Positions 153 to 59,045 of a stretch of 64,000 nucleotides of DNA are shown here, piece after piece; position 1 is the stretch's first letter; every line of letters begins with the position of its first letter. The DNA is taken from IMG/VR virus record IMGVR_UViG_3300045988_128837, positions 23,861-87,860 of that record; one strand, given 5' to 3'. A program made the position numbers and the translations under genes. This DNA comes from a virus. Below the pieces are notes generated by a model that made no database searches, was not told the origin of the DNA, and worked only from the letters and a program-made list of their open reading frames with translations.

Positions 153-791
153 TTACTTCACTACATATATTTTTCTGTGCTGTTGCACATTTATTGTTTC
201 GGAATGTGTTGATTTGAACACGTCTACATGCATTCCTTTTACTTTGCCTCCGCAATCTTCTGCCACAAAGATTGTGTCACCGTATCCCTCAATCTTAACT
301 CTTGTTCCATAAGGGATAATGTTTTTATCAACCGCAATCGTATGATATGGTCGAGCAAATTTATGCCCTGCATGATTCCAAGCAATCTTAGATCCATATC
401 CTTCAGAACATTCATAACATGGACAATATGCCGTGATCAAAAATGTTCCAAGTGAACTCTTTTCAAGTTCTCGCTTTCGCTTCAGCCGCTGTCGTTTAAT
501 TCGCAATCGTTTCTTTCGAAGTTTTTCTAATCGAATCTGTCTTGCTTGCTCTTCATCAGCTTTCTTACATTTCTGATAATGCTCATGAACATCTTTTAAT
601 GCAACGCTTTGGCTGATTGGATTGTCTGAAATCACATTGCCTTGCTTATTTTCTGCAACAGTTGTCTCTGTTGATAAGGTTGAAGCCTCTACCGAGGGTC
701 GCTCCTCTGCTTTAACCGTGTGAGTCATAAAGCCCGAACACATTGCTAAAAAACTAAACGAGACAACTTTCATTAAAAATCTTTTTCTCAT
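153..791 (-). CDS. Secreted 3D-domain protein (YuiC/MltA-like cell-wall binding or lytic transglycosylase-like). True start probably the internal Met MRKRFLMKVV at 791, not the track start at 815.
   Basis: N-terminal signal peptide MRKRFLMKVVSFSFLAMCSG. C-terminal 3D-domain motifs (YGTRVKIEGYGDTIFVAEDCGG, HVDVF). RBS AAGGAAAGGAAA lies upstream of the internal ATG. Has a K/R-rich linker. Confidence 0.55.
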   Translation of the reverse strand: MRKRFLMKVVSFSFLAMCSGFMTHTVKAEERPSVEASTLSTETTVAENKQGNVISDNPISQSVALKDVHEHYQKCKKADEEQARQIRLEKLRKKRLRIKRQRLKRKRELEKSSLGTFLITAYCPCYECSEGYGSKIAWNHAGHKFARPYHTIAVDKNIIPYGTRVKIEGYGDTIFVAEDCGGKVKGMHVDVFKSTHSETINVQQHRKIYVVK

Positions 792-821
792 TTTCACATT
801 TCCTTTCCTTAGCATATTGGT

Positions 822-859
822 ATCTTATCATACTTCTTGCACCCTGTCAATAGGTGCAA
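822..859 (-). promoter_or_regulatory. Sigma-A-like promoter (TTGACA, 17-nt spacer, TGnTAAGAT) with a palindrome TTGCACC-N8-GGTGCAA spanning the -35 box.
   Basis: Minus-strand reading: TTGCACCTATTGACAGGGTGCAAGAAGTATGATAAGAT. A near-identical element recurs at 42151-42189 and a related one at 29891-29928. Confidence 0.5.
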
Positions 860-868
860 AGAATAAAG

Positions 869-3142
869 TTAATTTTTTAGGCTTAACCAAGTGCGCCTCT
901 TATTATGATTTGTCATAATACATCTCTTAAACGCTTCTGGCTCTGCAAGGAGTGCAAATCTTTTCTTAGCTCGTGTCAACATCGTATATAACATACAGTT
1001 ATCAAGCAATTTGTAATGCGTATTGTCAATAATACCGATCACAGTTTGTGCAGCCGATCCTTGAAGTTTATGCGTGGTTAATGCATATGCTAATTGCAAT
1101 TGCCCAAGTTGAGCGAAAGAATATTCAATCATTTTCTCTTCGATATTTGCATTCATAGATACCAAACATATTTCTTTTTCTTTATCAATCGCTGTAATGT
1201 ATCCAATATCACCATTGAATACATCTCGCTCATAATCATTTGAGGTCTGTAATACCTTATCTCCCAAATAGTATTTACGATCTTTGAATTCAACAAATGG
1301 TTTATTACTACTAGCAAATAATTCTTTCTGCACTGCTTTATTCAATTCATCTGTACTGTTCGTGCAATTGCTTCTTCGTGGGGAAATAATCACAACATTA
1401 TCAAGCCCTTCCTCTTTAACAGATTTAATATACTGCTTTACTGCCATGTTAAATAACGATTCTCTATTCTTCCTGAACAAATAAAACATATCATTTAGTT
1501 CACCATGAACAATTTTTAATTGTGGACTATCCAATGGGTTAATTCCTCTACGAATCTTTCTTGCATCCGTTAAAATACCAGATTTTTCTGCTTGCCTCAT
1601 CGGCTTGGTGAGCTGAACGCTATTCAAACCTTTCTTTTTTAACAGATCAGAGAAAATATTACCAAATCCAATCGGTGGCAACTGCATATAATCACCACAA
1701 AAAATTAATCGTGTTCCTGGTCGAATTGCCAATAAAAAATTATAGAAAAGGCTCGCATTTGTCATACTACTTTCATCCATGATCACAACATCAGCAGGTA
1801 ATGGGTTATCTTGGTTGTAGCAAAAACTATCAATACCTTCTGCCACAAGTAATCTATGAATAGTCCGTGAGTCCAAACCTGTTGCTTCTTTAATTCGCTG
1901 GGCTGCTTTTGCAGATAATGCACACGCAACAATGCTATTATTTCTTTTTTGGTAGCATTTTATAATTGGTTTCAGAATTGTTGTTTTACCAGTCCCAGCT
2001 TCTCCAGAAATAAACACAACTTGACAATTTAATGCTTTGTTAACTCCTGTAATTTGCTCTTCTGAAAACATAAACCCTTCTTCATCTTCAACTTCAGAAA
2101 TCGTCTGACTAATCTCACTATCTGTTATTGGTTTGTAATCTGTTGTATTCCCAAATGAATATTTCTCCATATCTTTAATCAGTTCGTAAATATCCATTTC
2201 AATTGTATAATACGATTTCAGACCAATTTTATCTCCAGATGTATATAAATAATTTGGTATTTTTTTATCTGATTCTTCATCAAGCCATTCGTCAAATATA
2301 GGTAGGCATTCAGACGCTGCATTACTAATATCGCTTCTTAAATTTTTGATATATACATATGTATGTCCATCATTATCACCAACTTGATGCAAGTCGTAAG
2401 AAATAAATGCATTTAACCGTTGATTTGAGCATCGCAATTCTGGTTTTAATTTGAGCGCAATATCATCAACTCGTTTAAACCCCATGCCCTTTACTCTAGT
2501 GAGTATATATGGATTTTGTTCAATCTGTTTTTTTAAAACACTTGGATTAGGTTCAGATTTCAACAATCTTTCAATCGTTGGTAATGTAACTCCATATGGT
2601 TGTAACATTACAACAATATCAGAAATCACATAATTTTTAATAATTTTATCTCTAAGTTTCTTCCAAGTTTTATCTCCTAGTCCTTTGATTTCTGAATGGT
2701 CAATCATCTCTAACTGACCATTCATTACATCTTCAACAACATTAGGATATTTCGCAATTAACTGATCTGCGATCGCTGCGTTCGTCTGTGTTTTTAAAAA
2801 TACCTTTTGTGCTTCAAAAGTTTTAGGAACTTCAGCAACTATAGAAAGTGGTTTATATTGATATTCATTGTATTTCTTCGAATATGTCATATTGGCTTTA
2901 ACCTTATATTTCGTTCCTAAATACAACTCCTGCATATTACCAACCAATTTGCCACATTTGTTCATTTTTTTATCGGATAAGTCATCAAAATCATTATTAT
3001 TATATGGTTTACATTCTGGTAAATCTTCTGCTGTACAGAATGTGTAAATCCCAAATAAAGATTCTTCATTATAATAAATCTGATATAATGGGACAATCTC
3101 AAACTCATATTCTTTTGTACTATCCACCACTTTAGGCGACAA
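869..3142 (-). CDS. RecD/Dda-like SF1 DNA helicase with an N-terminal extension of about 340 aa.
   Basis: Walker A ISGEAGTGKTT, Walker B VIMDESSM, motif III CGDYMQLPPI, motif VI LTTHKLQGSAAQTV, C-terminal LTRAKKRFALL. Confidence 0.7.
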   Translation of the reverse strand: MSPKVVDSTKEYEFEIVPLYQIYYNEESLFGIYTFCTAEDLPECKPYNNNDFDDLSDKKMNKCGKLVGNMQELYLGTKYKVKANMTYSKKYNEYQYKPLSIVAEVPKTFEAQKVFLKTQTNAAIADQLIAKYPNVVEDVMNGQLEMIDHSEIKGLGDKTWKKLRDKIIKNYVISDIVVMLQPYGVTLPTIERLLKSEPNPSVLKKQIEQNPYILTRVKGMGFKRVDDIALKLKPELRCSNQRLNAFISYDLHQVGDNDGHTYVYIKNLRSDISNAASECLPIFDEWLDEESDKKIPNYLYTSGDKIGLKSYYTIEMDIYELIKDMEKYSFGNTTDYKPITDSEISQTISEVEDEEGFMFSEEQITGVNKALNCQVVFISGEAGTGKTTILKPIIKCYQKRNNSIVACALSAKAAQRIKEATGLDSRTIHRLLVAEGIDSFCYNQDNPLPADVVIMDESSMTNASLFYNFLLAIRPGTRLIFCGDYMQLPPIGFGNIFSDLLKKKGLNSVQLTKPMRQAEKSGILTDARKIRRGINPLDSPQLKIVHGELNDMFYLFRKNRESLFNMAVKQYIKSVKEEGLDNVVIISPRRSNCTNSTDELNKAVQKELFASSNKPFVEFKDRKYYLGDKVLQTSNDYERDVFNGDIGYITAIDKEKEICLVSMNANIEEKMIEYSFAQLGQLQLAYALTTHKLQGSAAQTVIGIIDNTHYKLLDNCMLYTMLTRAKKRFALLAEPEAFKRCIMTNHNKRRTWLSLKN

Positions 3143-14152: not shown

Positions 14153-14695
14153 TTATAATCTGGAAAATGTTGTTGATCGCATTCTTTTAATCTTTTGTTG
14201 TATCGCTTGAAATGATGTGCCAAACATTTTTGCGATTTCTTGATATGTATAACCTTTTGATTTTAAATCAACAATCATTCTGTCCTTATTATTTAGTGTG
14301 TAACATTTATCTTGAAAATTCAACTTGAAAATAATATTTTTTTCAAAATTTTCTTCATCCTTTAAAAGAAATGAATTTTCATTTTTGTCTTCATCCCAAT
14401 CATCTAACATATGATTATATGAAATAGTATTCATATCGCCCTTTCTTCTCTGCCGAAATCTGTATTTGTTATATACCGTTATTTCATTTTGTATACATAA
14501 ATACGCATATGTCGAAAATGATTTAGACCGTGTTTCATCATAATCAATTGCTGCCTTACACAACCCAATAGCAGCGAATCCATAATAGTCATCAAAATTT
14601 TGTCTGCGGATACCGCATTTTGTCATAGCAGAGTAAATCAAATTATGATTTTGTTCTACCAATTTTCTCTGTTCGTCATTTAATTTCAACGACAT
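14153..14695 (-). CDS. Phage-encoded sigma-70 family sigma factor (regions 2 and 4 only; ECF/TcdR-like).
   Basis: Region 2: LIYSAMTKCG...DDYYGFAAIGLCKAAIDYD...FSTYAYLCIQNEI. Region 4 HTH: GYTYQEIAKMFGTSFQAIQQKIKRM. Paralog of 20787-21368. Confidence 0.6.
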   Translation of the reverse strand: MSLKLNDEQRKLVEQNHNLIYSAMTKCGIRRQNFDDYYGFAAIGLCKAAIDYDETRSKSFSTYAYLCIQNEITVYNKYRFRQRRKGDMNTISYNHMLDDWDEDKNENSFLLKDEENFEKNIIFKLNFQDKCYTLNNKDRMIVDLKSKGYTYQEIAKMFGTSFQAIQQKIKRMRSTTFSRL

Positions 14696-29426: not shown

Positions 29427-29834
29427 TTATTTCTCTCCTTCTTCCTTATAGTAATATCCATACAAGCAACAATCTCCAGAATCCCATGTGTCGTAATAAC
29501 AACCGTCTGAAATTGCAACTACATGATTCGCAACATTTACCAAGTAATTGCCTTGTTTATGATCTTTTGCAAAACTTTCAACTGTTGGTCGTTTAGATCC
29601 TTTTCGGTTGCTAATACCTTGATAAGCAAACCCATTATCGAATAAATATTCTTCGTAACATTTTCGCTCTGATGGCATACACTGCATATCCCTTGCGTAT
29701 GGTAACAAATCATCAAATGTTGTTAACCATTCTTTATCAAGCACTTTTGTTAATGCTCTGATCACGCAATCTGAATGATTGTCTTTTGTATCTTTATCGT
29801 TTGGTTGATAATATCTGTAAATTTTATTTGACAT
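29427..29834 (-). CDS. Hypothetical protein.
   Basis: ORF only. First gene downstream of a strong minus-strand promoter. Confidence 0.4.
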   Translation of the reverse strand: MSNKIYRYYQPNDKDTKDNHSDCVIRALTKVLDKEWLTTFDDLLPYARDMQCMPSERKCYEEYLFDNGFAYQGISNRKGSKRPTVESFAKDHKQGNYLVNVANHVVAISDGCYYDTWDSGDCCLYGYYYKEEGEK

Positions 29835-29890
29835 TTTCTCACTCCTTCATATTTCATTTTCTTGAAGTTTACCTTTCATTTGTTGAATAT

Positions 29891-29928
29891 AATATACCAC
29901 TTCTTGCACATAGTGTCAATACAAAATC
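29891..29928 (-). promoter_or_regulatory. Sigma-A-like promoter (TTGACA, 17 nt, TATATT) driving the minus-strand gene array.
   Basis: Minus-strand reading: TTGACACTATGTGCAAGAAGTGGTATATTATATT. Shares the GTGCAAGAAGT core with the promoter at 822-859. Confidence 0.5.
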
Positions 29929-29937
29929 TTCAACTTC

Positions 29938-29969
29938 TTGAATATTTTATTTTACATCCTGTATATAAT
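29938..29969 (+). promoter_or_regulatory. Divergent plus-strand promoter (TTGAAT, about 18 nt, TATATAAT) for the HTH gene.
   Basis: Plus-strand reading: TTGAATATTTTATTTTACATCCTGTATATAAT, followed by GGAGG, 8 nt, ATG. Confidence 0.45.
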
Positions 29970-30000
29970 ATGTTACAATATAGATGTGGAGGTATATCAT

Positions 30001-30204
30001 ATGATAAGTTATAAACCGCTTTTCGTAACTTTAGCGAAAAAGGGTATGACAAAATCTGATTTACGAACCGCTTTAAATATGGGGTCTGGTACAATTGCCA
30101 AGATGGCAAAGAATCAGTATATCAGTCTCGAAAACATTGACAAAATTTGCTTATATCTTGATTGCAAAGTTGAAGATGTTATCGAGGTCATACCAAACGA
30201 TTAA
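30001..30204 (+). CDS. XRE/Cro-like HTH DNA-binding protein. The only plus-strand gene in the window; start at MISYKPLF.
   Basis: Strong RBS GGAGGTATATCAT before ATG at 30001. HTH-like GMTKSDLRTALNMGSGTIAKMAKNQYISLENIDKICLYL. Confidence 0.45.
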   Translation: MISYKPLFVTLAKKGMTKSDLRTALNMGSGTIAKMAKNQYISLENIDKICLYLDCKVEDVIEVIPND

Positions 30205-30244: not shown

Positions 30245-30382
30245 TGGAAACAACAGGAATCGAACCTGTGTCGGCAATTTATATGTGATGAAAATTAAAT
30301 GTAAATAAATAAAAATACTTATATGGAGGTAGAAAAATGAATGTTTATGTATTGCCTGCTCTACCAACTGAGCTATGTTTCC
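30245..30382 (-). tRNA. tRNA-like gene with canonical acceptor, D and T arms but an insertion of about 70 nt between the anticodon-stem strands. Candidate intron-containing tRNA or tRNA pseudogene; possible CAU (Met-type) anticodon. CCA is not encoded.
   Basis: Minus-strand reading: GGAAACA-TA-GCTC-AGTTGGTA-GAGC-A-GGCAA[TACATAA...74 nt...]TTGCC-GAC-ACAGG-TTCGATT-CCTGT-TGTTTCC-A. The acceptor stem pairs 7/7 and the T-loop is canonical. Confidence 0.4.
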
Positions 30383-58853: not shown

Positions 58854-59045
58854 TTACAAGGTTTTAGGCGTTACAGTGTATTTCATTTCTACTTGAACGT
58901 CAATTTTTCCATCAACGTACGACTGTAACAATGCTTCTGCAACATCACTATATTTTAATGCGTTACACTTGCATTTCCGCTTAAAACTTTCTTGTAAGGT
59001 TTCTTCGATTTGGATCGACATTGGTTTTCTAGCCATTTCTTTCAC
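58854..59045 (-). CDS. Small ribbon-helix-helix-like (CopG/Arc-type) DNA-binding protein, putative.
   Basis: MARKPMSIQIEETLQESFKRKCKCNALKYSDVAEALLQSYV pattern (beta strand then helix). Confidence 0.3.
   Translation of the reverse strand: MKEMARKPMSIQIEETLQESFKRKCKCNALKYSDVAEALLQSYVDGKIDVQVEMKYTVTPKTL

Follow-up and report, generated by a model that had tools for sequence, protein, structure and literature searches.

Consensus phage promoters centred on lineage-specific inverted repeats, with a candidate repressor of predicted recombinase fold

Operators that overlap promoters are textbook biology. The locus studied here raises the question of what a palindrome placed exactly on the -35 box of a phage promoter is for, and which protein reads it. 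The promoter occurs twice in the window, a stretch of 64,000 nucleotides of viral DNA (IMG/VR record IMGVR_UViG_3300045988_128837, positions 23,861 to 87,860). Working from the letters alone, the original prediction took it for a promoter gated by a dimeric repressor, or for an early-promoter family with a co-evolved regulator site. Comparison with diverged relatives supports a promoter gated by a dimeric regulator with a co-evolving site, as the promoter is invariant, the dyads are lineage-specific and the arms agree within a genome. The overall account given below, in which dyad-centred promoters are gated by a repressor and a catalytically dead recombinase is its likeliest identity, is judged probable from these sequence comparisons.

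Both copies of the element are read on the minus strand, which had not been stated before. In each copy, a 7-bp perfect inverted repeat is centred on a consensus -35 hexamer, which is followed by a 17-nucleotide spacer and an extended -10, as originally described. The pattern TTGCACC-TATTGACAG-GGTGCAA occurs exactly twice on the minus strand, at 837-859 and 42166-42188. A search of the window returned these two exact sites of the 23-mer TTGCACCTATTGACAGGGTGCAA; allowing as many as three mismatches added no other, and the chance expectation from 100 shuffles was zero. When the central nine bases were left free, only weak three-mismatch matches appeared elsewhere in the window. Copy 1 reads TTGCACC-TA-TTGACA-G-GGTGCAA from 859 down to 837, and copy 2 has the same 23-mer from 42188 down to 42166. 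The 38-nucleotide element was said to recur at 42151-42189; a second copy is indeed present there, but it is not identical, as 32 of the 38 positions agree between the copies. The parts of the two copies, which represent the settings called contexts A and B below, are as follows.

822..878, minus strand: copy 1 (context A), whole promoter-operator
845-850, minus strand: copy 1, -35 box TTGACA
829-830, minus strand: copy 1, TG of the extended -10; the 17-nucleotide spacer ends TGA
822-827, minus strand: copy 1, -10 box TAAGAT
837-843, minus strand: copy 1, proximal arm GGTGCAA
853-859, minus strand: copy 1, distal arm TTGCACC
about 860-878, minus strand: copy 1, A/T-rich upstream block
42151..42207, minus strand: copy 2 (context B), whole promoter-operator
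42174-42179, minus strand: copy 2, -35 box TTGACA, with the dyad centre at 42177
42158-42159, minus strand: copy 2, TG; the 17-nucleotide spacer ends TGG
42151-42156, minus strand: copy 2, -10 box TATATT
42166-42172, minus strand: copy 2, proximal arm
42182-42188, minus strand: copy 2, distal arm
to about 42207, minus strand: copy 2, A/T-rich upstream block

The 7-bp arms of copy 1 are symmetric about base 848. The similarity of the two copies continues upstream (AAAAATTAACTTTnTTnn; A/T-rich, AAAAATTAACTTT...), giving a shared block of about 55 nucleotides, and the stop codon of the helicase gene (869-871) falls within the A/T-rich block of copy 1. Both copies have the TTGACA-like -35, the spacer of 16-18 nucleotides and the TGn-TAnnnT of sigma-70/SigA-type promoters, and they are the top-scoring minus-strand consensus promoters between genes within the window. 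By motif match, they are strong promoters of the housekeeping-sigma (sigma-70/SigA) type.

Diverged relatives were reached through homologues of two proteins encoded downstream of the copies, a 338-amino-acid protein (99-43% identity) and a 3D-domain protein (95-70%), and from these to their contigs. Because the relatives were reached through proteins and not through the element, the operator was not preselected. Loci in the contigs of relatives carry L numbers, and the stretch compared is about 20 kb long at copy 2 and about 6 kb long at copy 1. Six operator types were found, in which only C-n-TTGAC(A/G) and TG-n-TA...T, always 17 nucleotides apart, are invariant, while the surroundings vary.

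Type 1 (window, contexts A and B): TTGCACC-N9-GGTGCAA
Type 2 (L114, L121, L125, L127): TTAATTGrCrC...GyGGCAATTAA
Type 3 (L116, L141-L145): ATATCTTTAAAyGC-N9-GCAyATAAAGGTAT
L118 operator (context B): AACTAAAC-N17-GTTTAGTT
L123 operator (context A): ATTACCA...TGGTAAT
L124 operator (context A): ATACTTAaTTTA...TAAAaTAAGTAT

In all ten sites from the six operator types, the centre of the dyad is the same G of TTGACA. With the centre fixed beforehand at this G, the symmetric positions are 7/7 in the window, 9/10 in L114, 8/9 in L116, 8/8 in L118, 9/9 in L121, 8/8 in L125, 7/7 (9/10) in L123 and 11/12 in L124. The chance probability per fixed centre in this DNA is about 0.0003-0.004.

Contexts A and B were readable from one genome in three lineages, and in each of them the arms of A match those of B: the window (type 1), contig SRR19415682_506905 with loci L125 and L127 (type 2), and contigs 132849 and 3300029604_000307 with the locus pairs L142/L144 and L145/L143 (type 3). 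The A and B loci of one genome are about 40 kb apart. Two loci of the same genome have an arm identity of 0.82-0.96 and a flank identity of 0.35-0.40. The same locus in different lineages has an arm identity of 0.32-0.61 and a flank identity of up to 0.88-0.91, where the flanks were compared without gaps and indels lower some of the same-locus values. The arms thus track the genome and not the locus, as predicted for a diffusible, genome-specific binding protein. That the promoter is gated by an operator to which a phage-encoded factor binds is highly probable. Repression would be the simplest action at a promoter that is already at consensus and whose -35 box lies within the site.

Among IMG/VR viral contigs of 80-170 kb, the operator pattern of the window is matched in more than 112 stretches, and each of the near-complete contigs (genomes of about 160 kb) has exactly three copies. 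The type-2 and type-4 operator patterns are absent from IMG/VR. In the relatives, context A is the 3D lipoprotein gene followed by a ligase gene, and context B is a MazF-like gene with the gene of the 338-amino-acid protein. Context C lies outside the window, where it heads a long gene array after gene-free DNA of about 2.7 kb. When context C loci were picked by their upstream flank alone, all had type-1 arms, and the outermost arm base differed in 10 of the 38. Two spacer variants, TTGCACC-TA-TTGACA-G-GGTGCAA and TTGCACC-CG-TTGACA-A-GGTGCAA (L001-L112), mirror each other at position 4 from the centre, with the half-sites TTGCACCT/TTGCACCC swapped. Close relatives have the two variants shuffled among the three contexts, a pattern suggestive of gene conversion from copy to copy; some exchange between operator copies probably occurs.

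Contexts A and C of type-1 genomes, and not context B, also have about 14 nucleotides in common (ACCAATATGCTwA) directly downstream of the -10; this stretch is window 808-821, the predicted transcript start. The gene-free DNA of about 2.7 kb just upstream of context C is seen at L036 4100-6800, where the base composition, judged by eye, changes partway, and it could be an origin or genome-end region. Downstream of context C are a 287-amino-acid protein with a weak replication-initiator match and a 942-amino-acid protein (phrog_8308).

Which protein binds the operator is less clear than the presence of the operator. The genes needed for this part of the argument are listed here.

153..791, minus strand: lipoprotein-like protein (MRKRFLMKVVSFSFLAMC...) with a C-terminal 3D domain (PF06725, E 4.8e-12), first gene downstream of copy 1
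41651..42100, minus strand: MazF/PemK-like protein of 149 amino acids (PF02452, E 2.3e-15; phrog_1936), first gene downstream of copy 2
40620..41636, minus strand: 338-amino-acid protein with a predicted tyrosine-recombinase fold, second gene of the copy-2 operon
40240..40605, minus strand: 121-amino-acid protein of no known family, third gene of the co-directional run after copy 2
45185-46135: active-looking tyrosine integrase (PF00589)
43025-44311, minus strand: IS110-family transposase

The identities of proteins around copy 2 to their window counterparts in three lineages with other operators are as follows.

338-amino-acid protein: L114 65%, L117 56%, L118 45%
MazF-like protein: L114 73%, L117 71%, L118 65%
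Integrase: L114 94%, L117 94%, L118 76%
106-amino-acid protein: L114 91%, L117 92%, L118 not present
121-amino-acid protein: L114 72%, L117 91%, L118 47%
216-amino-acid protein: L114 57%, L117 98%, L118 not present
Bro/ANT protein: L114 66%, L117 97%, L118 78%

Within the 20 kb compared, the 338-amino-acid protein diverges fastest, followed by the MazF-like protein. In L117, several neighbours are 91-98% identical despite the different operator; the 121-amino-acid protein, at 91% identity in this lineage, is thus not the specificity determinant. The 338-amino-acid protein was found at 95% identity or more in all 32 of the context-B loci with enough flank. It is the best candidate for the operator-binding factor, although the link stays inferential, since its gene adjoins copy 2.

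The family of the 338-amino-acid protein is small, with eight clusters at 90% identity and two full-length representatives among 1.8 billion proteins. A tblastn search against phages gave no useful match, and phmmer against PDB sequences gave no match. Its remote relatives are genuine integrases only: comparison of family profiles by hhalign gave a 96.5% probability over 194 columns, and the protein matches the PHROG integrase family phrog_1 with E 4e-10. An AlphaFold model built from 14 sequences, with two more family members and four remote integrases added, reached a predicted local distance difference test (pLDDT) score of 90.5. An earlier model from 9 sequences (pLDDT 58), whose matches to the recombinase fold were not significant, was not used. 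The top 45 structural matches of the better model are all tyrosine recombinases, with SPbeta MrpR/YopR among them, which suggests the same fold for the window protein. At the catalytic positions, Arg-I is replaced by N, S, D or E, His-II by I, N, T or S, Arg-II by I or L and His-III by I, V or A in all ten members; the Tyr position is kept. The loss of four of the five catalytic residues indicates a dead recombinase. The tyrosine-recombinase fold normally binds inverted arms as a pair of subunits. We put the dead recombinase at 40620-41636 forward as the operator-binding factor with evenly balanced confidence, given what sequence comparison can tell. One of the four remote integrase-like outliers, P0116, is without Arg-I, His-II, Arg-II and Tyr in the alignment, and recombinase-like proteins that have lost catalysis may thus also occur in other phage groups or elsewhere.

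The original prediction also placed a third promoter, at 29891-29928, in the same family and named two other proteins as possible binders. The promoter itself is present.

29891-29919, minus strand: third promoter (copy 3), conserved and of sigma-70 type, with TTGACA, 17 nucleotides, TG and TATATT
30001..30204, plus strand: HTH_26/VanU-like regulator of 67 amino acids

The third promoter also contains the literal GTGCAAGAAGT, offset by 2 nucleotides relative to copy 1; copy 2 reads GTGCAAACAGT at that place, and the counterpart of the third promoter in L127 reads CTACAAGAAAT. Its membership in the family was not upheld: no inverted repeat surrounds the -35 box, GTGCAA is not conserved in the relative, and the promoter has a repeated motif of its own. 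Taken as an internal control, copy 3 has no symmetry about the -35 box in the window or in L127. From its motifs, it is a separate promoter and not a member of the dyad family. Copy 3 faces the promoter of the helix-turn-helix (HTH) gene, so that back-to-back divergent promoters occupy window 29834-30001 between a 135-amino-acid gene and the HTH gene. Three minus-strand copies of (T)TCAAGAA(G/A)T lie there, at about 29856-29869, 29897-29905 and 29931-29939; this motif is conserved in L127 and is probably the operator of the 67-amino-acid HTH regulator. In L127, a different, unrelated gene lies downstream of the copy-3-type promoter. Nearby, at 30245-30382 on the minus strand, is a gene resembling that of a transfer RNA (Rfam RF00005, 46.4 bits). 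Its acceptor, D and T arms are good, 81 nucleotides stand in place of a 15-nucleotide anticodon arm, giving an apparent insertion or intron of about 66 nucleotides, and ARAGORN does not call it.

Both of the proteins proposed as binders are disfavoured. Lineages of types 1 and 2, which have different operators, agree in 63/67 residues of the HTH protein, and it more likely regulates its own divergent promoter region. Relatives of the ribbon-helix-helix (RHH) protein (58854-59045) occur in just 13 viral contigs, including only 4 of the approximately 15 contigs with three type-1 operators, so that it is missing from most near-complete three-operator genomes.

Readings of the dyad that involve no repressor were also weighed. 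The dyad could form a hairpin in RNA or single-stranded DNA of read-through transcripts, acting in processing, stability or as a pause signal. Upstream genes end 10-70 nucleotides before the element, so read-through RNA would contain it; isolated stems are viable (-4 to -14 kcal/mol), and a stem conserved in position with a lineage-specific sequence also resembles RNA-structure covariation. However, shuffled sequence folds just as well as the 101-nucleotide regions (z -0.15 to -1.5), and the loops of 7-23 nucleotides always have the invariant consensus -35 exactly at their centre. The same stem sequence stands at separate loci of one genome, which structure alone does not need. The arms are followed by GAAGTATG or ACAGTATG and not by a U tract, and a scan called no intrinsic terminator at the element. 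The folding energies alone did not discriminate either way; with the other points considered, the hairpin is very unlikely. Comparably improbable is a set of duplicated strong constitutive or early promoters in which the palindrome is incidental and is kept uniform by gene conversion. The shared block of about 55 nucleotides exceeds the dyad, the variants TA..G and CG..A are shuffled among the three contexts, and contexts A and C agree downstream of the -10 as well. Such duplication would leave unexplained that unrelated arms stand at the same centre in at least five operator types, each at the low per-site chance given above, and that the copy-3 promoter of the same phage is without a palindrome. 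It is extremely improbable that the dyads are core sites or mobile-element ends of an active recombinase that excises or rearranges the intervening 41 kb. Inverted arms around a centre of 7-9 bp are generally known from tyrosine-recombinase core sites, the copies are direct repeats, and an active-looking integrase and the IS110 transposase are nearby. Yet lineages that differ in their arms have an adjacent integrase of 94% identity, the 338-amino-acid protein lacks Arg-I, His-II, Arg-II and His-III, the gene order around both copies is constant in every contig examined, and the spacing between the -10 and the invariant -35 at the centre is fixed. As for a terminal repeat, the outcome that the original prediction said would count against a promoter, IS110 is an insertion private to the window lineage, more than 800 bp from the element. 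In L114, L116 and L127, a metallophosphatase or integrase gene runs straight to the 106-amino-acid gene without IS110, and the element is kept.

The remaining alternative accepts the operator and assigns it to another binder, which may be the HTH protein, the RHH protein, a complex of the MazF-like protein, a regulator encoded outside the compared regions or a host protein. This alternative is unlikely, but it has to be taken more seriously than the readings without a repressor. Short palindromes are most often bound by small proteins of the HTH or RHH kind. The two candidates of this kind are disfavoured by the comparisons given above, the HTH protein also by the separate conserved repeat at its own promoter. 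Against the 106-amino-acid, 121-amino-acid, 216-amino-acid and Bro/ANT neighbours stands their identity of 91-98% in a lineage whose operator is not that of the window, and a host factor would leave unexplained the switching of operators between phages whose neighbouring genes are 94-98% identical. Several points nevertheless weigh against the account favoured here. The MazF-like protein (73, 71 and 65%) and a 437-amino-acid protein (73, 67 and 69%) diverge as well. The covariation of operator and 338-amino-acid protein is partly trivial because copy 2 lies beside the gene, and the search for co-varying regulators covered about 20 kb around this gene, of a 160 kb genome, besides the 6 kb at copy 1. 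Gene conversion between the copies could account for some of the arm agreement within a genome. The distance of the symmetric positions from the centre differs by lineage (5-11 to 12-18 bases), and such a shift is unusual if a single binding geometry is conserved. SroF of phi3T, the sole recombinase-fold repressor that has been characterised structurally, is bound to an asymmetric 26-bp box as a monomer in its crystal structure (bioRxiv 10.1101/2025.11.27.690993). With regard to lysogeny, the exact operator pattern is absent from 185,579 representative bacterial genomes, except for one chance-like match. This single match to a cultivated genome (Microvirga) lies in high-G+C DNA without a promoter context and was treated as chance.

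The wider setting of the copies is that of a large phage. The window has a G+C content of 34%, and nearly all of its genes are on the minus strand. It encodes a PolIII-alpha-like polymerase, RecD-like and DnaB-like helicases, a RecJ-like nuclease, a primase-like protein and several Bro/ANT antirepressor-type proteins. A near-identity search with 8 kb against deposited phages gave no match, and the PolIII-like protein has at most about 36% identity to any deposited phage. The style of the promoters and ribosome-binding sites, together with the lipoprotein signal, points to a low-G+C Gram-positive host; the integrase, the antirepressors and, in relatives, toxin-antitoxin genes do no more than hint at lysogeny. 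Copy 1 comes directly after the helicase gene and upstream of the 3D-domain lipoprotein-like gene. The likely start of this gene is the ATG at 791, after AAGGAAAGGAAA; the mechanical start of the open reading frame at 815 adjoins the -10. The MazF-like gene starts at 42100 and is preceded by GAGGGA.

Several other features of the window and its relatives were observed. An ECF-like (extracytoplasmic function) sigma factor is encoded at window 14153-14695 on the minus strand (Sigma70_r2 and r4_2; phrog_351), which implies a phage promoter class other than the SigA type. A near-consensus plus-strand promoter at 40093-40121 (TTGACG, 17 nucleotides, TG, TATAAT) lies in the gap after the 121-amino-acid gene and points antisense into the genes of the 121- and 338-amino-acid proteins; an antisense RNA made from it could act on the operon of the candidate repressor. 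IS110 was searched for in plasmids without a near match. Upstream of the integrase, relatives (L116/L117, L127) have a variable accessory island, with HicAB or Phd/YoeB toxin-antitoxin pairs and several Bro-N proteins that differ among relatives. Downstream of the operon in the same relatives are nicotinamide adenine dinucleotide (NAD) salvage genes, namely NAPRTase, NAD synthase and an isochorismatase-family gene.

The dead recombinase as candidate repressor invites comparison with phage SPbeta, whose repressor MrpR, a recombinase in fold but inactive, binds a repeated element, SPBRE, at sites that include the promoter of its own operon and yorM (PMC10516654). In both cases, several promoters of a large phage of the Firmicute type share a short element, and one of these promoters is that of the recombinase-fold protein's own operon; the candidate regulator here, like MrpR, has a two-domain tyrosine-recombinase fold, by prediction, that has lost catalysis. 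In the predicted structure, MrpR/YopR entries 8a0a, 8bpz and 8bj6 are among the fold matches (8a0a at rank 10, E 6e-3). The yorM gene of SPbeta has a 3D domain and is next to yorL, which is PolIII-like; the parallel here is copy 1, placed ahead of a 3D-domain gene that comes after PolIII-like and helicase genes. SPBRE as read from NC_001884 is also a small dyad, ATACA-N7-TGTAT. The differences are considerable. The hhalign probability between the 338-amino-acid family and YopR is 0.5%, which means no detectable homology, so that the two have just the fold superfamily in common, and the active recombinases XerA and Tn1549 Int appear closer in the modelled fold. The SPBRE consensus CAAATACAAAWAATATGTATA (NC_001884) is unlike TTGCACC-N9-GGTGCAA. 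SPBRE varies in position (upstream of the -35, downstream of the -10, or both), whereas the dyad here is always centred on the -35, and SPbeta has about ten sites in contrast to three. SroF takes its asymmetric box as a monomer, whereas a dyad of 23-37 bp would imply two inverted subunits. The window shows no arbitrium genes, and binding here is predicted from the DNA. Membership in the SPbeta family was rejected because the tests of YopR homology and of the SPBRE consensus failed, and the comparison is kept as an analogy: the system may work like the SPBRE/MrpR type without belonging to that family.

Other known systems resemble parts of the arrangement. The lambdoid immunity regions and the dispersed C1 operators of P1 are heteroimmune repressor-operator sets of temperate phages. 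As would hold here, their operators overlap promoter hexamers, one repressor serves several promoters, the repressor operon is autoregulated, and operator and repressor co-diverge between otherwise similar phages. The candidate here differs in that it is not an HTH protein of the CI type, the operators are single dyads exactly on the -35 instead of tandem arrays, and the controlled promoters are tens of kilobases apart on one strand. Tyrosine-recombinase core sites such as loxP, dif and the Tn1549 ends have inverted arms of 7-14 bp around a short centre and bind two recombinase-fold subunits. The inverted-arm layout is similar, and the top fold matches of the model are enzymes bound to such sites. 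In contrast, the centre here is an invariant -35, the associated protein is without four of the five catalytic residues, and there is no sign of rearrangement at the sites. Operons of the MazEF/Kis-Kid type are autoregulated type II toxin-antitoxin operons; here too, a MazF/PemK-like gene comes first after a palindromic operator overlapping the promoter, and the next gene encodes a co-diverging partner with a predicted DNA-binding fold. Unlike in those operons, no MazE/AbrB-type antitoxin gene is present, the partner being the 338-amino-acid recombinase-fold protein, and the identical operator also stands at two unrelated promoters elsewhere in the genome. In PADLOC and NCBIfam, no models matched the MazF-like/338-amino-acid pair or its neighbours.

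In the proposed mechanism, which reads binding, repression and the identity of the protein from sequence patterns, a phage-encoded protein would cover the -35 box with two inverted subunits and keep RNA polymerase off. One factor would silence the three promoters of each genome of about 160 kb together. The 338-amino-acid repressor would be made from copy 2 and would repress its own operon, and the lineage-specific operators would reflect lineage-specific repressor specificities, as in heteroimmune phages. The operator may be likened to a recombinase core site, with inverted arms and a centre of 7-9 bp, whose centre became a -35 box. Co-transcription of the candidate repressor with a phage MazF-like protein would echo, by analogy, a reported role of host MazF in SPbeta-type lysis-lysogeny control (PMC10769878).

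The family provides an unusually clean natural experiment in which the promoter is frozen and the arms are swapped, with six operator types, of which three or more are fully cross-checked. Repressor specificity and heteroimmunity are thereby directly testable in a phage family known solely from metagenomes. We tentatively propose, as an idea somewhat more likely wrong than right, that the 338-amino-acid family is a second lineage of recombinase-fold phage repressors, unrelated in sequence to MrpR/SroF, which would bind as a dimer on a core-site-like dyad and whose fast co-evolution with its three dispersed operators would define immunity groups in these phages of about 160 kb. If the dead recombinase is the binder, tyrosine recombinases would have turned into transcriptional repressors more than once. 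Its mode, a dimer on a dyad, would be unlike that of the monomeric SPbeta-type repressor and would suggest a route from core site to operator. The matched sets of operator and protein would then serve as orthogonal repressor-promoter pairs in low-G+C Gram-positive hosts.

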